This document shows positions 1-56,000 of a stretch of 64,000 nt of DNA, piece after piece. The DNA lies in the NCBI GenBank assembly GCA_024137785.1, contig JAHRHZ010000009.1, positions 27,867,912-27,931,911 on the forward strand, given 5' to 3'. This DNA comes from Ginglymostoma cirratum (taxonomy: Eukaryota). The notes under the pieces are model-generated. The model saw nothing but the letters and a program-made list of their open reading frames with translations, was not told the DNA's origin and searched no databases. Each line of letters starts with the position of its first letter. Positions within the stretch are counted from its first letter, which is position 1. The position numbers and the translations under genes were made by a program.

Positions 1-128
1 GAAGAAGGGTCTAGGCCCGAAACATCAGCTTTCCTGCTCCTCTGATGCTGCTTGGCCTGCTGTGTTCATCCAGCTCTACACCTTGTTATCTCAGATTCTC
101 CAGCATCTGCAGTTCCTACTATCTCTCA
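1..128 (+). mobile_element. Penelope-like pseudo-LTR fragment (family A) with hammerhead motif truncated by the window edge
   Basis: gaagaagggtctaggcccgaaacatc...ctgcagttcctactatctc is near-identical to copies at 24724-24830, 39658-39755, 40771-40865, 52042-52100 and 52998-53168. It starts with (CT)GAAGA-A-GGGT/CTAG/GCCC-GAAA. Confidence 0.8.
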
Positions 129-3183: not shown

Positions 3184-3390
3184 AAACAGAAATTGCTGTT
3201 GAAACTCAGGAGGTGTGGCAGCTTTTGGGGAAAGGAGGCAGAGTTAACATTTCAAGTCCAATGACTCTTCTTCAGTCACTGGACCTGAAAATATAACTGC
3301 TTCCTTCCCACAGATGCCGATAGATGTGTTAAGTTTCACCAGCATTCTGTTTTTGTTTCAGTTCGCCAGTATCTGCAGTTCTTTGGTTTA
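3184..3390. mobile_element. Short inverted (fold-back) pair of PLE pseudo-LTR fragments (family B) with hammerhead motif
   Basis: Left arm aaacagaaattgctgttgaaactcag is reverse-complementary to right arm ttaagtttcaccagcattctgttttt. The minus strand at 3243-3275 reads CTGAAGA-A-GAGTC-ATTG-GACTT-GAAA-TGTTAAC. Confidence 0.7.
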
Positions 3391-3784
3391 TTGTAGGCAA
3401 GCTTTTAGATTTATTTTCTTGTTGTGGAATATTGTTCAGGAAGACAAGTTCCATAGTTGGTGATTTCTATTTTGCTAATTATATATAGCTGATACAAAAA
3501 CATAATTCTACATGTTAGAAAATATACCTTGAGAGAATTGGACAACAAGAGATCTAACTCAAACAGGAAGAAGGATAGATATTATAGAAAACACAAAATA
3601 AGATTTGTTCTGGCAATGTATTGTCTTCTTTGAAAGTTTGAGTTGACCACACGTATAATCAAATGTATAACCAAACGTTATACTTTGCATCCAATATGAG
3701 CAAGAAATATGTGTCACTGGCACTGGATGATGAATACTGGGTGGAAAATTATTCTGTTTTGCAACACTGATAGTCTATATTTAG

Positions 3785-7125: not shown

Positions 7126-8902
7126 ATTTTGGCTGTCAATGAGCGGGACAGCCTCAGAATGAAAGTTCTCATTCAGGTGAAGATGGCGTGGGCATAAGGG
7201 ATGCCAATCTATGGGCAAATATCCTCTGGGTGATGAGTTGTTGTGGGAAAGGTGCATGGCAAGAAATCAGATGTGAGAGACACCAACGGGGCATGGCAGG
7301 TAAGTAATGAGGAAAATTTAAAATAGGGTGAGAAACTCATGAGGCTTCGCACAACGAACCCTTCAGAAAACTTGATGCAACTTGGACTTATTCAAAACAG
7401 CGAAAGATACAAATCAAAGAGTGGTACAAAGAGAAATCTGGGTGTAAAACCATAAGACCATAAGACTTAGGAGCAGAAATAAGGCCATTCAGCCCAATGG
7501 GTCTGCTCTGCCATTCAATCATGGCTGATAAGTTTCTCAACCCCATTCTTCCACTTTCTCCTCATAACCCTTGATCTCTTTGATAATCAAAAAACTATCT
7601 ATGTCTGTCTTAAATATACTCAATGGCCTCTGCAGCCTTCTGTGGTAATGAATTCCATGATTCACCACTCTCTGGCTGAAGAAGTTTCTCCTTAACCCAG
7701 TTCTAAAGGGTCTTTCCTTTACTCTAAGACTGTGTCCTTGGTTCCTAGTTTCTCCTGCTAATGGAAACATCTTCTCAATGTCCACTCTGTCCAGGCCATT
7801 CAGTATTCTGTAAGTTTCAATTAGCTCCCTCCTCATTCTTCTAAACTCCATCAAGTATAGGCCCGAAGTCCTCAAAACCTCCTTATATGTTAAGCCTTTC
7901 ATTCCTGGGATCTTTCGTGTGAACCTCCTCTGGACCTGCTCCAGGGTCAGTACATCTTTCCTGAGGCATGGGGCCCAAAACAGCTCACAATATTCTAAAT
8001 GTGGTCTGAACAGGGCTTTATAAAGCCTCAGAAACATATTGCTGCTTTTACATTCTCGTCCTTTCGAAATAAATGCCAACATTGTATTTGCCTTCCTAAC
8101 TACCGACTCAACCTGCAAGTTTACATTAAGGGAATCCTGGACAAGGACTCCCATGTCCCTTTGCACTTCAGATTTCTGAATTTTCTCCCCATTTAGAAAA
8201 TAATCTTTGTCCCTCTCCTTCCTACCAAATTGCATGACCCCACATTTTCCCACATTGTATTCCATTTGCCACTTCTTTGCCCACTGTCCTAACCTGTCTA
8301 AATCCTTCTACAGCCTCCCCACTTCCTCAATCCCACCTGTGCCTCCACCTATCTTTGTACCATCTGTAAACTTAGCCAGAATGTCCTCAGTTCCTTCATC
8401 TAGATCATTAATGTATAAAGTGAAAAGTTATGGTCCCAACACTAACCCATGTGAAATGCTACTAGTCACTGGCTGCCATCCTGAGAAAGACCCCTTTATC
8501 CTCACTGTCTGCTTTCTGCCAGACAGCCAATCTTCTATCCATGCTAATACCTTTCCTCTAACACCATGGGCCCTTACTTTACTCAGCAGCCTCTTGTGCA
8601 TCACCTTGTCAAAGGCTTTCTGGAAGTCCAGGTAGATAACATTCATTGGCTGTACTTGGTCTAACCTTTTTGTTAACTCCTCAAATAATTCTAACAGATT
8701 TATCAGGGATTTTCTCCTCTTGATGAAACAGTGCTGACTTTGCCTGTTTTACCATGCACTTCCAAGCATTCAGAAATCTCATCCTTCACAATGGACTCCA
8801 AAATCTTACCAACAACCAAGGTAAGGCTAATCAGTCTGTAATTTCCTGTTTTTTGCCTTATTCCCTTCTAAAACATTAGCAATTTTCCAGTCCCCGCACA
8901 CA

Positions 8903-9240
8903 GGGGAGGCAGTGGCCTATTGGTATTATCACTGGACTGTTAATCCAGAGACCCAGATAGCATTCTGGGGACACTGGTTCAAATCCTGCCATGGTAGATT
9001 GTGAAATTTGAATTCGGAATTAAGAATCTAATGATGACCATGAATCAATTGTCAGGAAAACCCCATCTGGTTTGCTAATGTCCTTTAGGGAAGGAAACTG
9101 CCATCCTTACCTGGTCTGGCCTACATGTGACTCCAGACCCACAACAATGTAGTTGACTCTTAACTGCCCTCTGGGCAATTAAGGATGGACAATAAATGCT
9201 GCCTGATCAGTGACACCCTCATCCTGCAAAGGGAAAAAAG
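8903..9240 (+). mobile_element. tRNA-derived SINE inserted into CR1 ORF2
   Basis: Pol III A box tggcctattgg (8913-8923), B box ggttcaaatcc (8976-8986), 3' tail gggcaattaaggatggacaataaatgc and an A-rich end. A second copy lies at 39067-39430. Confidence 0.88.
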
Positions 9241-10917
9241 AACACCATCCCTGATTCCAGTGATACCTGAAAGATCACCACTAACACTTCTACTATCTCC
9301 CTCAGAACTCTGGTGTATAGTTCATCTCATCCAGGTGATTTATCCACCTTCTGACATTTCAGCTTTTCTAGCACTTTGTCCTTGGTAATGGCCACCATGC
9401 TTACCTCTGCCCCCCCACCTCCTACCCCGACTCTCTTGAACTTTTGGTATATTACTCTTGTCTTCCGCCATGAACACTGACGCAAAGTATTTGTTTAGTT
9501 CCTCAGCTATTTCATTGTTACCCGTTACTACTTCCCCAGCGTCATTTTCCAGTGGCCCAATGTCCACTTTTGCCTTTCTTTTGCCCTTTATATACCTAAA
9601 GGAACTCTTGCAATCTTCTTTTATATTTCTGGCTAGCTTACCCTCATATTTAATCTTCTCCTGCCTCCTTTTTTCAGTTGTCTTCTGTTGGTCTTTGTAG
9701 GCTTTCCAATCCTCTGGTTTCCCACTGCCCTTCGCCACATTATATGCTTTCTCTTTTGCCCTTATGCTGTCCCTGGCTTCCCTAGTCAGCCATGGTTGCC
9801 TCATCCTTCCTGCTTCTTTTTCCTAGGGATGAATTTTTGCTGTGTCTCCCGAATTACTCCCAGAAACTCCTTGCCATTGCTGTTCTACTGTCTTTCCTGC
9901 TAGGCTTTTCTCCCAGTCAATTCTGGTCAGCTCCTCCCTCATGCCTTAAAGTTGCCTTTATTCAACTGTAATACCATTACATCTGATTCCACCTTCTCCC
10001 TCTCAAATTGCAGAGTAAATTCTATCATGTTATGGTCACTGCCTCCTAAGGGTTCCTTCACCTTAAGCTCCCTTATCAAGTCTGCCTCATTGCATATCAC
10101 TAAATCCAAATTGCCTGTTCCCTAGTGGGCTCTACCACAAGCTGCTCCAAAAAGCCTTCTCATAAACATTCCACAAAATCCCTTTCTTGCGATTCACTAT
10201 CAGCTGGATTTTCTGAGGCCACCTGCATATTGAAATCCCCTCTGATCACAATAACCTTGCCTTTCCTGTCTGCCTTTTCTATCTCCTGGTGTACTTTGTG
10301 CCCTAAATCTGACTACTGTTTGGAGGCGTGTACGTAACTCCCATTATAGTTCTTTTTTTAACCTTTTCACTTCCTCAACTCTAACCACACAGGTTCTATA
10401 TCATCTGACTCTACATCATTTCTTGCCATTGATTTAATTTCATTTCTAACTAATAAGGCAACCCCACCCCCTCTTCCTACCCACCTGTATTTTCGATAGA
10501 TTGTAAATCCTTGGATATTTAGTTCCCAGTCCTGGTCCCTTTGCAGCCATGTTTCTGTGATGCCAACAACATCATACCTGCCAATTTTGATCAGCGCCAC
10601 AAGCTTAATTACCTTCTTTCATATTCTGGGTGCATTCAAATACAGCACTTTCTGTCCTACATTGACCATCCCTCTTGTCATTGTCATCCCTTTATCCAGT
10701 GTGGTGGGGGTTACATTCCTAACCCTTTCCAAACACTCTGTCCTATTTTGTGTGTTGGAGACTTTAATAACTGCTCCTGAATTCTCCTTTCCTTTCATTT
10801 ATTTTTCATACTTTTCCATGCAGTTGAATACACACCCACAGAAGTTAACCTGCTGTTTTGTATGCAATTGACCATTATACTTCTTAGAGTTTTATCCTTC
10901 CCTTGCCCCCTAACTTT

Positions 10918-11874
10918 CTAGTTTAAAGTCCTGTTGACCACCTGATTTACCCTTTTCGTGAAAACATTGGTCCCAGCTCAGTTCGGGTAGAGACCATCCC
11001 AATGGTACAGATCCCTCCTGTTCCAAAACTGATGACAGTGCCCATGAAAAGGAACCCCTTTTTCCCACACCATTCCTTTACCCACCTGTTTCCTTCCCTT
11101 ATTCTCGCATCCCTGTAGCAATTTGCATGTGGTTTAGGTAATAATCTGGAAATTATAACCCTTGAGGGTCAGTTCTTTAATTTATTTCCTAGTTCCTGAT
11201 AATCCCTAAACAGGTCTTCTTTCCTAGCCTCGCTTATGTTGTTTGTCCTAACGTGGACCATAACAATCGGATCCTCCCCCTCCCTCTCTAATATCCTTTC
11301 AAGCTGGTCAGAGATGTCCCTCACCCTGGCACCAGGCAGGCAACACACCATGCAGGAATCTCGATCCTGCTTACAAAGGATGCTATCTATTCCCCTAATT
11401 ATAGAATCCCCTACAACTACCACTTGCCTTTTTGCTCCTCCCTTTTGAATGGCCTCCTGTACCATGGTGCCATGGTCAGCTGGCTCATCCTCCCTGCAGC
11501 CCTTTTATTCATCCACATAGGGAGCAAGTACCTCGTACCTGTTGGACAAGGTCAAGAGCTGAGGTTCCTCTGTTCCTGACTGCAGGATCCCTCTACCTGC
11601 CTCACTTGCGGTCACACCCTGCTGTCCCTGGCCACTGTCCAAATTTGTGGCACTTTAATCTACCAGGTGTGACTGCTTCCTGAAACAAAGCGTCCAGGTA
11701 ATTCTCCCCCTCCCAGATGTGCCGCAGTGTCTGAAGCTCAGTCTACAGCTCATCAATTCTGAGCCAAAGTTCCTCCAGAAACCAACACCTGCAGCAGATG
11801 TGGTCACTGCAGTTCGCAATGAAATCAGCCAGCTCCTGTATCATACAGCTACAGCACATCATCTGCCCAGCCAT
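10918..11874 (-). pseudogene. CR1 ORF1 (zinc-finger/leucine-zipper N-terminus plus SGNH/GDSL-like esterase), disrupted
   Basis: ATG at 11874 reads MAGQMMCCSCMIQELADFIANCSDHICCRCWFLEELWLRIDEL*TELQTL. Track ORF 11169-11465 contains VVVVGDSIIRGID...CCLPGARVRDI. Confidence 0.85.
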
Positions 11875-20569: not shown

Positions 20570-22240
20570 TGTATCAGTCTTTGGTAAGATTTTTGAGCCC
20601 ATTATTAAGGATGAGATTTTGGAGTCCTTCGAAGTGCATGGTAAAGTAATGCCTGACAAATCCGTTAGAATTCTTTGAGGAGGTAACAAGCAAGTTAGAA
20701 AAAAAGAGAGCCAATGGGCGTAATCTATTTGGATTTCCAGAAGGAATTTGACAAGGTTCTGCACAAGAGGCTGATGAATAAGATAAAAGCCCATGGTGTT
20801 AGGGACAAGGTAAGAGGATTGGCTGATTAGCAGAAGGCAGAGAGCAGGGATAAAGGGATCTTTTCCAGGATGGCAGCCATTGACTAGTGGAGTTCTGCAG
20901 GGGTCAATGTGGGACCACAAATATTCACCGTATATATTAATGCAGATGACACAAAGGTAGGTGGAGGGACAGGTAGTATTGAAGAAGTGAAAGGCTGCAG
21001 AAGGTTTGACAGGCTAGGAAAGTGGGCAAAGAAGTGGTAGATGGAATATAATGTGGAAAAGTGTGAGGTTATACACTTTGGTAGGAAAAGTTATAGCATA
21101 GACTATTTTCTAAATGAAGAAGAATTTGGAAATATGAAGGTCAAATGGACTTGGGAGTCCTAGTTCAGGATTCTCTAAAAGATAACATGTAGGTTCAGTT
21201 GACAGTTAAGAAGACAAATTGCATTGTTAGCATTCCTTTCAAGAGGGCTAGAATACAAGAGCAGACATTTGCTGCAGAGGCTGTATAAGCCTTTGGTCAG
21301 AATGCATTCTGGAATATTGAGGGCAATTTTAGGCCCCACATCTAAGAAAGGATGCGCTGGCATTGGAAATGGGCCAGAGGATGTTTACAAGGATGATCCC
21401 AGGGACAAAGGGGTTGTCAGAGGAGGAGCTATTGAGGTCTTTGGGTCTGTATGCAATGGAGTTTGGAAGGATGAGGAGGGATCTAATTGAAATTTACAGA
21501 ATATTGAGCGTTGTGGATTGAATGACTGTGGAGAAGATGTTTCCGCTTGTAGGAGAGACAAGGATTCAAGGATACAGCCTCAAAGTGAACGGACAACCCT
21601 TTAGAACTGACATGAGGAGGAATTTCTTCAGCCACAGGGAGTTATAGAGTCACAGAAACATTGGCAGCTCATTCCATGCACACATCACCCTCTGCATGAA
21701 AAAGGTGCTCCGTAGGTCCCTTTTAAATCTTTCCCCTTTCACTTTAAACCCATGCCATCTAAATTTGGACTCCCTGCTCTGGGGAAAAGACCTTGTCTAT
21801 TTGCCCTGTCCATTCCCCTCATGATTTTATAAACTTCCATAAGGTCTCAGGCTCCCATGCTCCAGGGAAAATAGCTCCAGCCTATTCAACCTCTCCCTAC
21901 AGCTCAAACCCTCCAACCCTGGCAACACCTTTGTAAATCTTTTCAAGTTTCACAACATCTTTCTTATAGCAGGGAGACCAGAACTGTATGCAGTATTCCA
22001 AAAGTGGCCAAACCAATATCCTATACAGCTGCAACATGACCTCCCAGAGGTCATGAGGGCCAAGACATTCAGTGTATTTAAGACAGCAATCAATAGGCTC
22101 CTGATTAGTAAGGGGATCAAGGGTTTTGGGGAGAAAGCAGGTGAATGGGTTGAAAAACACCTTAGACATGATCAAATGGCAGCGCAGACTCGATGGGCCA
22201 AATGGCCTAATTCTCCTCCTACATCTTACAGTGTCTTGTT
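20570..22240 (+). mobile_element. CR1 LINE RT/3' part, interrupted by an antisense CR1 fragment
   Basis: IYLDFQKEFDKV, LAFLSRGLEYKSR..L.LYK.LVR.H and 3' UTR gatgggccaaatggcctaattctcctcctacatctt. Confidence 0.9.
21640..22046 (-). mobile_element. CR1 3' fragment inserted antisense within CR1
   Basis: The minus strand encodes [34 protein letters not shown]; the sequence resembles 3990-4370. Confidence 0.85.
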
Positions 22241-22254
22241 CATAAGTCTAAGGA

Positions 22255-24723: not shown

Positions 24724-24830
24724 TATCAGAGATAAAAGGTACTGCAGATGCTGGAGAATCCGAGACAACAAGCATGGGGCTGGATGAACACAGCAGGTCA
24801 AGCAGCATCATAGGAGCAGGTAGGAGCAGG
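24724..24830 (-). mobile_element. PLE pseudo-LTR 3' fragment (family A) with a 12-bp TSD
   Basis: Reverse complement of positions ~32-128. It is flanked by the perfect direct repeat ttggtatagttg (24712-24723 and 24831-24842). Confidence 0.85.
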
Positions 24831-24849: not shown

Positions 24850-25620
24850 TGATCCGTTGATTGGACGAACATGTTATTGTATGGCAATGTGCTACATCAA
24901 TGTCACACCTACAGCATGTGCCAACCACTTTTGGAGCAAATGCATGGAATGTGTTTCAGCCAAATTGCCATGTCTATAAGTCTTAGGGGAATAGTTCTCA
25001 CACAAGTCAATGAGGACTGTCTTCAGACAGGATAGGTTTTCACTGTCAGTCCAAAGGCTTTGACAGAGCCAATCGGCTACATGGGGTAACTAGGGTCATG
25101 GGTCCCCAGGCACAGTTCCAGGGAGTGACTACAGTCTGTACTATTGGTAGCTGGCTTTCCCAATGTGCAGGGCACTGTGCATGCAGTACATATCATAACC
25201 TGGCTAACTTCAGCAACAGGAAAGAGTTCCATTCCATCAATGTACAAGTCATCTGTGATCATCAGTACTGTATCTTAGAAGTCTGCATGAGAAACCCCGG
25301 GAATTATGTCTATATCCTTGAGAACTCCTACGTTCCTGCTTCATTTCAAGAGTTGGATGCCTTACAAAGTTGATTATCGTGATACAAGGGCTAGCCTCAA
25401 GACCATGGCGGATGACTCTGTTACACAAGCCCTTGACTGAGAGCCAGAAGGAAACAATGCAACACATTTTTCCCACAATGCCATTGTGAGCAGACAATAG
25501 ACCTCCTGAAAGTGTGGTTCCAATGCTTGGATTGGTCTTGGGAAGGTCTTGCAGTACAATCCAGGCAGAATGGATTACGTAATCCTTTCAAGTTGTGCTT
25601 TGCACATTTGGAACAAGGAA
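24850..25620 (+). pseudogene. PIF/Harbinger DDE transposase (HARBI1-like family) fossil
   Basis: GFPNVQG (ggctttcccaatgtgcagggc), FSNRKEFHSINVQVICD...NPG, decayed KGY.L.PW.MT and EQTIDLLKVWFQCLD..LQY.P motifs; frameshifts and stops. Confidence 0.85.
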
Positions 25621-39657: not shown

Positions 39658-39755
39658 GAGATAACAAGGTGTAGAGCTGGATGAACACAGCAGGCCAAGC
39701 AGCATCATAGGAGCAGGAAGGCTGACGTTTTGGGCCTAGACCCTTCATCAGAAAA
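39658..39755 (-). mobile_element. PLE pseudo-LTR fragment (family A) with hammerhead motif
   Basis: Minus: TTTT-CTGATGA-A-GGGT-CTAG-GCCC-AAAA-CGTC (G12 mutated to A). Possible TSD acRacatt. Confidence 0.8.
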
Positions 39756-39959: not shown

Positions 39960-40440
39960 AACTAAAAAGAGAAAATGTTGGAAAATGTTAGCAGATCTGG
40001 CAGCATCTGTAGAAAGAGGAGCAGAGTTAATGTTTCAAGTCCAGTATGACTCATCTTCAGAACTGAAAGGAGCTGGAAAATTGGTGTGTTTTTTATGCTG
40101 TTGACAGAGATGGAGGAGGAGCAAGTGAAACAGATAGTGAAGCTGTCCAGAGCAAAATACAAAGGGAGTGTTAATGGTGGTGAATGAAAGATAGAGATGT
40201 AAAATAGGTCTAAATGAAAAGGAGAAAATTGGCCCATTCTGCAGAGAGTGAAACCAACAAGGCACAAACAAGACATGGCTGGGAAAAGAGAAGGATGGAT
40301 GTTCATAATTAAAATAGAAAACTAAAGTTATGCTCTGAAGTTATTAAACTCGACAGAGTCACAGAGGCTGTAAGGCATAAGAAAATGAGGTGCTGTTCAT
40401 CCAGCTTGTGTTGTTTTTTGTTGGAATACCATAGCAGGCC
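39960..40440 (-). mobile_element. Old Penelope-like element 3' end (GIY-YIG C-terminus plus family-B pseudo-LTR)
   Basis: The minus strand from ~40412 reads QHKLDEQHLIF...LQP...EFNNFRA* (PLE endonuclease end). Hammerhead CTGAAGA-T-GAGTC-ATACTG-GACTT-GAAA-CATT at 40027-40062. Confidence 0.75.
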
Positions 40441-40770: not shown

Positions 40771-40865
40771 GAAGGGGAAGAAGGGTCCCAACCCAAAACG
40801 TCAACTTTCCAGCTCTTCTGATGCTGCCTGGCCTGCAGTGTTCCTCCAGCTCCACACTGTTATCA
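40771..40865 (+). mobile_element. PLE pseudo-LTR fragment (family A), decayed hammerhead
   Basis: gaagaagggtcccaacccaaaacgtcaactttccagctcttctgatgctgcctggcctgc matches 1-90. Confidence 0.75.
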
Positions 40866-41816: not shown

Positions 41817-41953
41817 AAAATCCAAAAGAACTACGGATGCTGTAAATCAGGAACAAAAACAGAAGTTGCTGGAAAAACTCAGCAGGTCTGGCAACATCTG
41901 TGAAGGAGAAAACAGAGTTAACGTTTCAGGTCCGGTGACCCTTCCTCAGAACT
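41817..41953 (-). mobile_element. PLE pseudo-LTR fragment (family B) beginning at a hammerhead
   Basis: Homologous to 45868-46007, 39960-40065 and 3184-3390. Confidence 0.8.
41916..41953 (-). ncRNA. Minimal type-I hammerhead ribozyme motif
   Basis: AGUU-CUGAGGA-A-GGGUC-ACCG-GACCU-GAAA-CG-UU-AACU: intact core, stem II, palindromic AACGUU, and perfect stem I AGUU/AACU. Confidence 0.78.
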
Positions 41954-49315: not shown

Positions 49316-52300
49316 ATATGTGAGTAAACTTTTATCCCTATCCTGTGTGCTGCCAGTGAGTAGCATGTGAGCAAAGAATTATTACTATAGGATGTTGATG
49401 TCATTCATGTTAACAATGGTAGCTCTGATATTAATTATAATATCTCTGTAATAAAATGCCTCATTTATTTTATCATTAAGTTAGGACTCACTGGATGCAC
49501 ACAGACAGTGCAGCTCTGCATAATACGACCCATAAGATCCTGGAGAGTTTTGGCACATGTATTGCATGAGAGCAAATTTACACCATCAAGTTGAATTTTC
49601 AAAAGAATTCTGCATGTAGCTTTTTCCACAATCATTGAAACTGCACATGAATTTCTTAAATTGGTTGTGTCACTCCCAAGTTGCATCCATCCATGCAAAA
49701 TACTAGTTTATGTGTATTTCCTGAATGAATGATAATATAGAATTCGCCTGGAAAGTCATAGGTCCACTCAGGTCCAATGTCACTTGATGTCAACAAGGGA
49801 GTTTTCTGGGCCTGGGTATCCATTTTTATCTTCTTTCTTATCTAGCCACAGCATATTTTGTCTAGGGGCATGCAAAATCGGTTCCAGACATTGGTTGAAG
49901 GAATTAAACAATGCCCTAGGGGGTGCTTTTGCTAACGCTGTTGGGGAGGTTATAAACTAATGTGGCAGGGGGACGGAAAGCAAATGAGGAGGTTAGTGGA
50001 CAGTAAGGAGGTAGTAACTACAGCCTGTAAGGGACTAGATAATGAAGTCAGTATGACTAAGGGGAAGAGTAGGCAGAGAGCAGATGATGAACGCAAAGGA
50101 ACAGGTGGTCTGAGGGGCATTTGTTTTAATGCGAGAAGTGAAGTAGGTAAGGCAGATGAACTTAGGGCTTGTATTAGTACCTGGGAGTATGATGTTATTG
50201 CTATTACTGAGACTTGGTTGAGGGAAGGGCAAGATTGGCAACTAAATATCCCAGGATATAGGTGCTTGAGGTGGGATAGAGAGAGAGGTAAAAGGGGTGG
50301 AGGTGTTGCATTACTGGTCAAAAAGGATATCACAGCTGTGCTGAAGGAAGACACTATGGAGGACTCGAGCAGTGAGGCAATATGGGCAGAGCCCAGAAAT
50401 AGGAAGGGTGCGGTAACAATGTTGGGGCTGTACTACAGGCCTCCCAACAGCAAGCATGAGATAGAGGTACAAATATGTCGACATATTATGGAAAGATGTA
50501 GGAACAACAGGGTGGTGGTGTTTGGAGATTTTAATTTTCTCGACATTGACTGGGATTCACTTAGTGTTAGGGGTTTAGATGGAGCAGAATTTGTAAGGAG
50601 CGTCCAGGAGGGTTTTATGGAGCAGTTTGTAAATAGTCCAACACGGGAAGGGGCCATACTGGACCTGGTGTTGAGGAATGAGCCCAGCCAGGTAGTTGAA
50701 GTTTCAGTAGGGGATTACTTTGGGAATAGTGATCACAATTCCGTAAGTTTTAGAATACTCATGGACAAAGATGAGAGTGGTCCTAAAAGAAGAGTGCTAA
50801 ATTGGGGGAAGGCCAACTATAGCAAGATTTGACAGGAGCTGGGGAATGTGGATTGGGAGCAGCTGTTTGAGGGTAAATCCACACTTGATATGTGGGAGCC
50901 TTTTAAAGAGAGGTTGATTAGAGTGCAGGACAGACATGTCCCTGTGAAAATGAGGTATAGAAAGGGTAAGATTCGGGAACCATGGATGACAGGTGAAATT
51001 GTGAGACTAGCAAAGAGGAAAAAGGAAGCATACATAAGGTCTAGACGACTGAAAACAGACAAAGCTTTGGAAGACTATCGGGAAAGTAGGACCAATCTGA
51101 AATGAGGAATTAAGAGGGCGAAAAGGGGTCATGAAATATCTTTAGCAAACAGGGTTGAGGAAAATCCCAAAGCCTTTTGTTCATACATAAGGAGCAAGAA
51201 GGTAACTAGAGAAAGGGTCAACCCACTCAAGGACAAAGGAGGGAAGTTATGCGAGGAGTCAGAGAAAATGAGTGAGATTCTTAATGAGTACTTTGCGTCG
51301 GTATTCACCGAGGAGAGGGACGTAATGGATGTTGCGGTTAGGGATAGATGTTTGATTACTCTCGATCAAGTCGGCATAAGGAGGGCGGAAGTGTTGGGTA
51401 CTCTAAAAGGCATTAAGGTGGACAAGTCGCCAGGTCCGGATGGGATCTTGCTGAGGGAAGCAAGAGAGGAAATAGATGGAGCCTTAACAGATATCTTTGC
51501 AGCATCCTTGAGCACGGGTGAGGTCCCAGAGGACTGGAGAATTGCTAATGTTGTCCACTTGTTAAAGAAGGGTAGCAAGGATAATCCAGGTAATTATCGA
51601 TACCCGATGTCAGTGGTGGGGAAGCTGCTGGAGAAGATACTGAGGGATAGGATCTATTTACATTTGGAAGAAAATGGGCTTATTAGTGATAAGCAGCATG
51701 GTTATTTACAGGGAAGGCCATGTCTTACCAACTTGATAGAATTATTTGAGGAAGTGACAAAGTTGATAGATGAAGGAAGGGCTGTAGATGTCATATACAT
51801 GGCATTCAGTAAGGTGTTTGATAAGTTTCCCCATGGTAGGCTGATGGAGAAAGTGAAGTCGCATGGGGTGCAGATGTACTAGCTAGATAGATAGAGAACT
51901 GGCTGGGCAACAGGAGGCAGAGAGTTGTAGTGGAAGGGAGTTTCTCAAAATGGAGAACTGTGACCAGTGGTGTTCCACAGGGATCTGTGTTGGGACCACT
52001 GTTGTTTGCAATATACATAAATGATCTGGAGGAAGGTATAGCAGCATCATAGGAACAGGAAAGCTTGACGTTTTGGACCTAGACCTTTCATCAGAAATGG
52101 ACATCATCTATGGGTTCTCCGACAGTGGCCTCATGGCCAATGACAGCGGGTACATTGTGGGAGATGTCCTGGATATGGCTGGGGATTTGGCAGGTGGGGG
52201 AAGCCCATTTTGGGTGGTGGGCACCAGTAAGTTTACTGTACTTACGGTTTTTAGTGACCAATAAAGCTGAGTAGAATTGTGAGTTCAAGTTGTGGATCCT

Positions 52301-52597
52301 ACGGAGAATAAAAAACAGGAGAGGCCCTTTGCAGGTCTGGGAGAGGGAGGCTTTGAGCTGGGGTAGTCTTGATTGTAGTGCCTGGAGATGCCAGCGCATT
52401 GCTGCAAGTGTGTGTTTCAGGAGTCGCAGGGAGAAACGCTTCTGAAGGGTCTCAATGTTCTGAATGTAGATATTGTCACAGTTGGGGCTAAATTGGGAAG
52501 GCTTGAATGTGGACTGTAGTCCATTGGGGATGATCTGGTTCCGTAGGCAGGTACTAAGAAAGGTGATGTGGCTGTGGTACCTGGTTTGCTTCAGGAC

Positions 52598-52997
52598 NNN
52601 NNNNNNNNNNNNNNNNNNNNNNNNNNNNNNNNNNNNNNNNNNNNNNNNNNNNNNNNNNNNNNNNNNNNNNNNNNNNNNNNNNNNNNNNNNNNNNNNNNNN
52701 NNNNNNNNNNNNNNNNNNNNNNNNNNNNNNNNNNNNNNNNNNNNNNNNNNNNNNNNNNNNNNNNNNNNNNNNNNNNNNNNNNNNNNNNNNNNNNNNNNNN
52801 NNNNNNNNNNNNNNNNNNNNNNNNNNNNNNNNNNNNNNNNNNNNNNNNNNNNNNNNNNNNNNNNNNNNNNNNNNNNNNNNNNNNNNNNNNNNNNNNNNNN
52901 NNNNNNNNNNNNNNNNNNNNNNNNNNNNNNNNNNNNNNNNNNNNNNNNNNNNNNNNNNNNNNNNNNNNNNNNNNNNNNNNNNNNNNNNNNNNNNNNN
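52598..52997. other. Assembly gap (400 N)
   Basis: Run of N. Confidence 1.
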
Positions 52998-53005
52998 CAG
53001 GAAAG

Positions 53006-53039
53006 CTTGACGTTTCGGGCCTAGACCCTTCATCAGAAA
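53006..53039 (-). ncRNA. Minimal type-I hammerhead ribozyme motif (core intact)
   Basis: UUU-CUGAUGA-A-GGGU-CUAG-GCCC-GAAA-CG-UC-AAG; GUC cleavage triplet and ACGU palindrome. Confidence 0.8.
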
Positions 53040-56000
53040 TGGTTGATGAAGGATCTAGGCCTGAAACGTCAAGCTTTCCTGCTCCTATGATGTTGATTGG
53101 CCTGCTGTGTTCATCCATCTCCACACCTTGTTATCTCGGATTCTCCAGCATCTGCAGTACCTATTATCTCTGGAGGAAGGTGTAGATGGTTTGATTAGCA
53201 AGTTTGCAGATGACACTGAGATTGGTGGAGTAGCAGATAGTGAAGGGGACGTCAGAGAATACAGCAGAATATAAATAGATTGGAGGGTTGGGCAGGGAAT
53301 GGCAGATGGAGTTCAATCCAGGCAAATGCGAGGTGATGCATTTTGGAAGATTCAATTCAAGAGCAAACTATACAGTAAATGGAAAAGCCCTGGAAAAAAT
53401 TGATGCACAGGGAGATCTCGGTGTTCAGGTCCATTGTACCCTGAAGGTGGCAATGCAGTTCAATAGAGTGGTCAAGAAGACATACGGCATGCTTTCATTC
53501 ATCGGACGAGGAATTGAGTACAAGAGTTGGCACGTCATGTTACAGTTGTATAGGGCTTTGGTTCGACCACATTTGGAATACTGCCTACAGTTTTAGTCAC
53601 CACATTATCAAAAGGATGTGGATGCTTTGGAGAGGGTGCAGAGGAGGTTCACCAGGATGTTGCCTGGTAATGAGGGTGCTAGCTATGAAGAGAGGTTGAG
53701 TAAATTAGGATTACTTACATTAGAAAACAAAGGTTGAGGGGGAACCTGATTAAGGTCTACAAAATCATGAGAAGTATAAACAGGATGGATAGCAAGAAGC
53801 TTTTTCCCAGAGTGGGGGACTCAACTACTAAGGGTCACTATTTCATGGTGAGAGGGGAAAAGTTTAAGGGAGATATTCATGGAAAGTTCTTTACGCAGAG
53901 GCTGGTGGGTGACTGGAACGTGTTGCCAGCAGAGGTGGTAGAGGCGGGCACGACAGCATCATTTAAGATGTATCTAGACAGATACATGAATGGGCAGGGA
54001 GCAGAGGGATACAGATCCTTGGAAAATAGGCAACAGGTTTAGATAGCTGATCTGGATTGGTGCAGGCTTGGAGGGCTGAAGGGCCTGTTCCTGTGCTGTA
54101 ATTTTCTTTGTTCTTTGTTCTAACCACTTCTTCATATTCAGAAACCCTGAGCAGCTAGGGCAGTCTTCTCGTTGGACATAAACTTTGTCTGAGTAAGAAT
54201 GGAAGAGAATGAGATGTCATGGCAGAGGATTTCAGATTTCCTTGCTATTACTCCTATCAATGACTTTATATTTCATTTCAGCTGCACATTCTTCCTTGAG
54301 CAAATGAGCTTGACAGGAAATTTTCGTATAAGCCTCCAAACGTGCAGGAATCAGTATAGATTTTAGTAATGTCTGAGTAAGTGCAAACCAGAACATGTGG
54401 AGTCAGTATTTCCTCTTCCTGCTGGTGGATGACAAAATAGCCAAAATGCAGTCATGTAAATGTCTACTGTCTTGAACGTCTGGTCCATCAGAGAGGCAAG
54501 CCCTTGACCAAGCTGCACAAGAAGAAACAAATTGAATGGCAATGGTAAAGGTAGAGATTGTAATGCTTCCTAATTCAGTAGCAACCTGCAGTTTCAACAC
54601 TGAGACAGTAATCATTACTACTTTTCCTACAGTAAAGATAAAGATGTGAAGCTCAGTTCCTGAAGGGGTGATGCACTTCTGTCAATGTATATCAACTTTG
54701 GATAAGAACAAACATAGATCCAAAGAGCAAAGTTATACAGCCTTCACATTTCAGAGTAGATATTCTGTCTGTTGGTACTCAAGGATTCTGTAGCACTTAA
54801 ATAATTAAAAATAACACATTCAAGACACTTTCTATGAAGTCAAATGTTGATTGCAAAGCTTTGTTTGTAGAGTACTGATTAAATGGCAATTCTGGACTGT
54901 GACTAAAGTAGGTTTATGACAAGGGCTAGTCTATTTAGAGTCCAAAGGCTGTACATCGAATGCATTAGGTATTGTTTTATAAAAGACATTCACAGAAGCT
55001 TTAGAAGAAATTTAAAACTCAAAGATTGACATTCAATAAAAGAGGTGCATTGGTTATGGATATTTTTTGTATTAAACTATCCTTAAGTTAAACAAGACTT
55101 CAAATGAAGAAGATAAAATGTAATCTCTTATCCTCAAGTTTATTGAAGTCTTCAAAGCATTTGAAATGCTGACCTGACGGACAAGGAACAGGAGTACAGT
55201 ATCACTGTCATTGAATCTAGAAAGTGATATTTTGATACCTGAATGCACTGGGAGGATGTTAATGAAGGTGCTTAATGCTGTCATTGACAGTAAGACAATC
55301 CAGGACACAAAGAGAAACAGAACTCGGATGTGGCTTGCCATGTGGTTTATAATATTCAATTTGAAAAAAAAGCTCAGGCCTCCAGAGGGGCTAGTCAGAA
55401 AAGCTGTAGACAGATGCTATGAACCCTGGAGTCCACTGCAAATGCACTCAGGTCAGGCAGGAAGGTTAGAGCCACGTTGCTGTATAGAAATGAACAGAAG
55501 AAGAAATTTGGACTTTTATGGCCTCAACAGGAAATACGTATATTATTTCTTTTTATAATCGCAACTTTTGATTATACTCGGAAACAATGAATTTTCTGTA
55601 AAATAAAATTTTGAAGTAACATTTTGATATCTAACTGTTGAGTATGCAGTAAATTATGGTTTTGTGGACTGATTTTTAAGAAAATAATAGGTTAAATTAT
55701 TGCAACTAATGTTTTCCACCTGTCAGTAAATCAAACATTTTTGTAAAAATTAACAGGATTCGATATTACAGTGTTTACATATCAAATTTGTGATTTAATC
55801 ATTAATGTTACAAGATAATTGAAAAAAATTAGTGCAATTATCTAATCTTACATCATGAGCCAGATTCAGCTGCATGTCTGATATTGGTTCAATGTAAGCT
55901 CTGGCCAATAGCATCAAATTTAAATAAACAAACTGCAGACCTTAATGTACCAGTTACTATTGTACATCATGGGCAGTATACAACAATTAGGTGAAATGTA

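Follow-up and report, generated by a model that had tools for sequence, protein, structure and literature searches.

An apparently internally deleted Penelope-like element with hammerhead motifs in the genome of the shark Ginglymostoma cirratum

Introduction

Penelope-like elements (PLEs) typically insert as an open reading frame (ORF) between two direct pseudo-long terminal repeats (pLTRs), together with an adjacent inverted pLTR, a tail, and a target-site duplication (TSD); an internally deleted derivative with the same organization has already been described (PMC3846280), and the same scheme is given in PMC8557442. Here we analyze a 64,000-nt stretch of the genome of the shark Ginglymostoma cirratum (contig JAHRHZ010000009.1; the whole stretch is called the window, and all coordinates refer to it), in which an initial annotation had recognized, at 52042–53168, a retrozyme-like unit whose transcript could be cut out between two hammerhead ribozymes. 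Comparison with related proteins and repeats instead points to an internally deleted PLE, probably of Neptune type.

Several described systems bear on this insertion. The PLE clades reported in vertebrates are Neptune and Poseidon (10.64898/2026.07.22.740005), and a linker motif of the CX2-5CxxC type marks Neptune and Nematis (PMC8557442). In vitro, the PLE protein of the anole nicks and extends both strands and primes internally in the tail, and hammerhead cleavage is not required by the protein (PMC11167929). Vertebrate non-LTR retrozymes are 51–972 bp in length and derive from PLE pLTRs; as published, they are tandem units with at least two complete hammerheads, minimal motifs also being admitted (10.64898/2026.07.22.740005). 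Retrozymes have no protein-coding region (PMC7761336), and those characterized have canonical type I hammerheads and circular RNA. In vivo cutting by the minimal hammerheads of PLEs has been called still a mystery (PMC7761336).

The layout of the shark insertion is ordinary for a PLE, and its deleted form is already published. Like the Pen2 derivative on scaffold 304 of Adineta vaga, it has two direct pLTRs and an adjacent inverted one, a tail at one end, a short TSD, and an internal deletion (PMC3846280, Fig. 2a/2c); a related Adineta copy also sits in a non-LTR retrotransposon, as the shark insertion does (PMC3846280). Unlike the shark element, the Adineta copy belongs to the Penelope/Poseidon clade and has a deletion described as microhomology-mediated (PMC3846280), whereas the shark deletion ends exactly at the 5′ edge of a pLTR and removes all of the reverse transcriptase (RT) and endonuclease (EN). 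With the vertebrate Neptune EN+ PLEs the shark element shares a homologous N-terminus and a minimal hammerhead in the pLTR, but its RT, linker, and endonuclease are gone and its ends differ by a 73-nt tail, against the usual 30–40 nt. Like Chlamys MRC1, it is bounded by pLTRs and has no enzymes, MRC1 being moved by an autonomous PLE (PMC8557442). The nonautonomous PLEs of Chlamys are multi-copy, often head-to-tail, and have a 3′ end in common with their autonomous partner (PMC8557442); the shark element, in contrast, retains the ORF's 5′ portion and is represented by one known copy. It resembles the metazoan non-LTR retrozymes (PMC7229834; 10.64898/2026.07.22.740005) in its same-strand type I hammerheads, PLE-derived repeat, lack of RT, and dependence on a PLE, and differs from them in being one unit with one intact minimal ribozyme, an ORF remnant, and an inverted pLTR.

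Insertion site and terminal repeats

The insertion comprises 1,127 nt, including a gap of 400 N, and interrupts the RT of a decayed long interspersed nuclear element (LINE; Table 1). ORF2 of this host element, which we take to be of CR1 type from the likeness of its motifs, matches Exo_endo_phos (9e-18) and RVT_1 (6.6e-06), and its RT frame is continuous once the insertion and one copy of the TSD are removed in silico. The initial annotation had proposed a single insertion of a PLE derivative with a 17-bp TSD. The single insertion stands: there is one TSD, the frame of the empty site is continuous, and two nested insertions were ruled out on inspection, with no inner duplication around 52101–53168. 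The duplication is also real, 16 of its 17 nt being identical, but in the strict sense it measures only 11 nt (range 11–17), since both of its inner ends also fit the family's own continuation.

Table 1. Features of the insertion and its host element
Feature	Position	Strand	Remarks
Host element, decayed CR1-type (presumed) LINE ORF2	49936..54120	+	apurinic/apyrimidinic (AP) endonuclease and RT; right boundary approximate; PLE lies inside the RT domain
TSD, left copy	52025..52041	+	17 nt at most; last 2 nt also match element continuation
Downstream direct pLTR	52042..52100	-	CCATTT, decayed minimal type I hammerhead (C3 at 52094, predicted cut site 52067), short tail ending at 52042
PLE ORF fragment	52091..52597	-	168 codons, open; N-terminal helical region and start of Thr/Ala/Asp-rich linker
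Deletion junction	52100..52106	-	ORF side ends UGAUGUC; last C, at 52100, common to pLTR
Assembly gap	52598..52997		exactly 400 N; only gap in the window
Upstream direct pLTR	52998..53042	-	CCATTT, then the one minimal hammerhead left intact: C3 at 53036, predicted cut at 53009, helices I and II of 3 and 4 bp
Inverted pLTR, 5′-truncated	53043..53168	+	long tail; core without C3, two stem II changes; head-to-head with upstream pLTR
TSD, right copy	53169..53185	+	first 4 nt also match element continuation

On the minus strand, two 45-nt direct repeats (52056–52100 and 52998–53042) are 93% identical and lie 942 nt apart as assembled. Both begin with CCATTT and have the same 5′ edge, 6 nt before the hammerhead core, and repeat comparison confirms that an inverted, plus-strand pLTR abuts the upstream repeat. 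In these respects the initial annotation was accurate, and its coordinates for the insertion, the direct repeats, the ORF, and the inverted pLTR all hold. Between the pLTR copies we find differences at 3/38, 2/38, and 5/38 sites, and between the TSD copies at 1/17, as in an old, decayed copy. The head-to-head pLTR junction at 52998–53081 makes a hairpin of 38 bp (95% complementary), which gives weak scores with several models of microRNA precursors and could yield double-stranded RNA if transcribed.

ORF remnant and its relatives

ORF-derived sequence extends down to about 52100, and the last two codons and the stop are supplied by the pLTR: as had been claimed, the TGA that closes the 168-codon frame is that of the CTGATGA core, being U4-G5-A6 of the downstream hammerhead. 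An exhaustive protein search gave 67 matches (72 proteins were retrieved overall, and the domain scan covered nine), and the ORF matches named proteins of Rhincodon typus (90%), Stegostoma tigrinum (85%), and Hemiscyllium ocellatum (63%), from which the host would be an orectolobiform shark. In one relative (P0003), the same N-terminus (55% identity) is followed by a low-complexity linker and RVT_1. Four relatives of 882–919 aa carry GIY-YIG (E = 3e-06 to 5e-04), two of them RVT_1 as well, and all four full-length proteins have a CX4CxxC linker, the corresponding region of which is deleted in the shark insertion. Each of the 10 close homologues covering the break extends into the linker, six with the same DD-V/I motif, and none terminates in HF-stop. 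The 168-aa ORF matches no Pfam family, and tblastn with six longer relatives against the window finds the N-terminal piece only. The initial observation that a PLE N-terminus runs straight into the pLTR is thereby confirmed.

Because the homologues run past the fusion point into RT and GIY-YIG, the element is best read as an internally deleted PLE, and its relatives suggest that it is probably of Neptune type. Its ORF homology, its direct and inverted pLTR layout with a TSD, and its minimal type I hammerhead are those of an EN+ PLE derivative; the intact RT and GIY-YIG between pLTRs that characterize an autonomous PLE are absent, so a PLE protein would have to be provided in trans by an autonomous element. 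At least 202 nt are expected in the assembly gap, made up of the remaining pLTR tail, the 5′ untranslated region (UTR), and 36 initial codons, since homologues begin 36 residues upstream of the sequenced frame. By the same reasoning the unit, 542 nt of which are sequenced, would measure at least 744 nt if the tail and the ORF start are uninterrupted. The gap lies upstream of the ORF N-terminus, so any RT inside it would belong to a separate tandem copy.

Some gene models have absorbed the PLE N-terminal frame (P0001, P0002, and P0038). A whale shark acid-phosphatase isoform ends in this frame, and an epaulette shark "mucin-2-like" protein is a frameshifted PLE; such models are probably annotation artefacts.

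Hammerheads and the retrozyme interpretation

Hammerhead positions are given in the conventional numbering, in which G12 is important for catalysis. By motif and folding, only one of the three hammerheads is intact, that with C3 at 53036. In the downstream copy a G12-to-A change had been reported; it is present (at 52074), but it is accompanied by two others, G10.1A at 52086 and C11.3U at 52077. G10.1A breaks the conserved G10.1-C11.1 pair, and stem II of this copy is unfolded (0.0 kcal/mol, compared with −3.9 in the intact copy). The inverted copy has T in place of C3. All three damaged positions of the downstream ribozyme are private to that copy, and G12A sits at a CpG that is lost in four of six related copies covering the site, so this change is probably decay after insertion. 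Rfam gave no match in the whole window at gathering scores; a permissive search of 52000–53250 (E up to 10) gave eight, none of them a hammerhead. Seven of the eight were microRNA models on the inverted-repeat hairpin, far below gathering, and were rejected. Since Rfam is silent, the ribozyme call rests on inspection of the motif against the published description of minimal hammerheads.

Were the unit a retrozyme, a dimeric hammerhead would excise a monomer of ∼0.75–0.94 kb, to be circularized and then reverse-transcribed by an autonomous PLE. The two same-strand hammerheads are nominally 942 nt apart, inside the 51–972 bp range, and the damage to the downstream ribozyme, being private, could post-date insertion: both direct copies may once have been intact, and the complete hammerheads that the present unit does not have may have been there at insertion. 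The state of the motifs nevertheless weighs heavily on the other side. With one hammerhead of three intact and the downstream copy broken at two conserved positions, nothing in the unit amounts to a canonical type I ribozyme with loop 1–loop 2 contacts; helix I has 3 bp and there is no helix III stem. The forced dimer, in a rough folding calculation on 45-nt pieces, comes to +0.9 kcal/mol, whereas the best competing fold reaches −22.6. In vitro, cleavage by minimal PLE hammerheads is poor (PMC4209133), and eight of nine Xenopus dimers tested were uncleaved (10.64898/2026.07.22.740005).

The structure of the unit argues in the same direction. It forms no tandem array, being the only one in 64 kb, and it holds a 168-codon protein-coding remnant. 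In the upstream copy the core is complete on the 5′ side of the cut site and the sequence stops 6 nt ahead of that core, with no read-through of the junction; an uncut linear template fits this better than a circle, because a circle would let the RT read through the junction again. The inverted third copy and the TSD belong to the ordinary PLE layout (PMC3846280, Fig. 2a/2c; PMC8557442, Fig. 2). We therefore regard a retrozyme as highly doubtful. The initial annotation is thus partly supported: the anatomy it described is real and the derivation from a PLE is upheld, whereas release of the unit by two ribozymes is unsupported.

Origin of the deleted copy

We favor, with a probability of about 0.55, a one-off, dead-on-arrival insertion of a Neptune-type PLE that was shortened while inserting. 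What is seen directly is one TSD, two direct pLTRs with a common 5′ edge, an inverted pLTR, and an ORF that breaks off in the linker, ahead of the RT. The PLE protein would have nicked both target strands and primed cDNA on each, internally in the pLTR tail, the priming ends being 52042 and 53168, where the primer matches over 2 and 4 nt. One cDNA would have run 59 nt as far as the template's 5′ terminus or to a preferred stop, ∼6 nt before the core, and would then have switched to a shortened end of the RNA within the ORF linker rather than to the true 3′ end. After the jump, the ORF start, the 5′ UTR, and the pLTR would have been copied back to the same 5′ point, and this long cDNA joined head-to-head with a short cDNA from the opposite strand. 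The three pLTR copies would afterwards have decayed neutrally, and ribozymes would have played no part in setting the ends of the unit.

The common 5′ edge of the direct pLTRs supports this reading, since it would rarely be expected from random later deletion. Among four solo pLTRs elsewhere in the window with a locatable 5′ end, three have their start between about −5 and +2 relative to the core (39751, 41949, and 40777, the last with a weak TSD), the fourth starts ∼34 nt in (24820), and none starts at the hammerhead cut site. This tally leaves out the 3200–3400 structure, the copy at the window edge (1–123), the 40060 copy, whose 5′ end is not delimited, and the long element at 29.3 kb. The clustering of pLTR 5′ ends near the core suggests that the transcript starts there or that the RT prefers to stop there, and that the templates were uncut.

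A number of points weigh against shortening during insertion. The uniqueness of the junction was checked only in 64 kb and in protein databases, and a junction that creates a stop is one that gene models would seldom include. The tally of preferred stops, at 3/4, is small and mixes subfamilies, and if copies often stop near the core anyway, the common 5′ edge discriminates less. The 400-N gap is unread, and the literature gave nothing useful on whether 400 N is an assembler's placeholder. Template jumping by PLE RT is proposed but not demonstrated (PMC3846280). Contrary to expectation, CpG-type decay accounts for 0 of 20 ORF differences and neutrality of the ORF is unsupported; that test compared proteins from other copies, at least partly from other species, and hence carries little weight.

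The main rival is that the insertion is one copy of a recurring, nonautonomous subfamily of deleted PLEs, made in trans on an uncut, linear transcript, with the junction already present in a parent copy. The pLTR and the ORF start correspond to the cis sites needed by the PLE protein (PMC11167929), pLTRs alone mobilize unrelated DNA in trans (PMC3846280), putatively nonautonomous PLEs exist in Chlamys (PMC8557442), and the frame here is still open across 168 codons. The searches for recurrence speak against it, as weak tests limited to the window and to proteins: neither blastn nor tblastn finds a second copy of the ORF piece in the 64-kb window, the ORF-to-pLTR junction is absent from the 72 retrieved proteins, tblastn of these proteins against the three pLTR pieces gives only two short, chance-level matches (E up to 0.05), and a protein search with the pLTR peptide, aimed at upstream pLTR sequence or at read-through of the junction in other copies, gave 0 matches from one candidate. 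On balance we consider such a subfamily unlikely.

The deletion might also be younger than the insertion, a full-length copy having lost its RT, endonuclease, and 3′ UTR through a microhomology-guided event at the DNA level. Events of this kind disable many Penelope copies in Adineta (PMC3846280), and the homologues read DDV-T/I-S past the break, where an imperfect short match to CATTTC is possible. The coincidence required makes this distinctly unlikely: the deletion must end within 1 nt of the independent truncation point of the upstream pLTR. A homology-driven template switch at the common ACGUC motif was rejected: the hammerhead core would have been lost in it, yet the core is there.

That the junction is a short-read misassembly beside a gap in repetitive DNA we consider very improbable. 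A round gap of 400 N does stand next to a 38-bp, 95% inverted repeat, and tandem and inverted PLE structures trouble short-read assemblies (PMC8557442). The junction, though, stands 497 nt away from the gap, with the target boundary at a distance of 59 nt; the two contigs are tied together by the TSD and by the unbroken RT frame of the host element; and an extra A after GUC occurs in all three pLTR copies and not in the copies at 1–123 and 39658–39754.

The position of the break allows a further possibility, which we rate as a long shot: that it is the in vivo footprint of a PLE hammerhead cutting its own ORF after the GUC at 52100. The ACGUCA strand of an intact core would pair with UGAUGU of the linker over 6 bp, compared with 4 bp in the normal dimer; an end-to-end jump of the RT would then join the cut end to the RNA 5′ end, or the ends would be ligated. 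The junction is the only one of 89 U-H sites in the sequenced ORF with more than 4 bp of helix III to the hammerhead ACGUCA strand, and its 6-bp helix has −5.4 kcal/mol, compared with −3.1 at the natural site. Helix-III-compatible sites of this kind occur at 7.2e-4 per nt in the window (91/127,200). The match was, however, noticed post hoc and concerns a single event, and helix I would have only ∼1 bp, judging from the next residues of the homologues (Thr or Ile). In a literature mostly outside subscription journals we found no published report of a PLE hammerhead that cuts the ORF of its own element; going by titles and the first lines of abstracts, we likewise found no paper on deletion derivatives of shark PLEs.

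Other repeats in the window

Solo pLTR fragments of the same or a close family lie at 1–123 (+), 24724–24830 (−), 39658–39754 (−), and 40777–40864 (+). That at 24.8 kb has a 12-nt TSD, missed by the automatic search and found directly, and a 10-nt duplication at its 5′ junction. The 3′ ends of the solo pLTRs fall at two sites ∼31–38 nt apart, like the published PLE tail; the 52042 end of the deleted element is ∼42 nt shorter than either site. Minimal hammerheads of other PLE families occur at 41949 (−), 40060 (−), and 3275 (−), with a helix I of 4 bp at 41949 and 40060. A perfect 11-nt TSD flanks the 41949 copy, whose start lies 3 nt ahead of the core; at 40060, a pyrimidine tract and CAG immediately precede helix I, resembling a splice acceptor. 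An inverted structure suspected at 3200–3400 was not confirmed on inspection.

A second inverted example in the window, at 29271–29834, is an insertion with 220-nt arms (84%) and a hammerhead-like core at 29348 (−); its frames look akin to a Penelope/Poseidon-type endonuclease C-terminus, a likeness for which Pfam gave no supporting match. Two CTGACGA motifs and GAAAC lie close together at 32150–32190 (+), possibly another decayed hammerhead. At 25014–25370 (+), a weak DDE_Tnp_4 match (E = 0.002) is probably the remnant of a Harbinger-type transposase. A stop-to-stop scan of the window detected further LINE ORF2 remnants (7540–11504, −; 35094–36067, +; 21900–22247, −) and no recognizable host gene exon. 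A bacterial promoter and terminator scan of the window was empty and is irrelevant to a vertebrate.

Implications

As it stands the insertion has little import, being a decayed fragment of a PLE whose structural type is published, in a window with several other PLE remnants. If its junction recurs, the element would stand, as an intermediate, between full PLEs and the retrozymes of pLTR origin that were reported in 2026 (10.64898/2026.07.22.740005). Self-cutting of the ORF, if it did occur and recurred at helix-III-compatible GUC sites, would mean that minimal PLE hammerheads are active in vivo, and it would provide a route by which short nonautonomous PLEs, possibly retrozymes, arise. A preference of deletion junctions for GUC sites able to pair with the ribozyme would then serve as a genomic test of in vivo cutting by the minimal hammerheads of PLEs.

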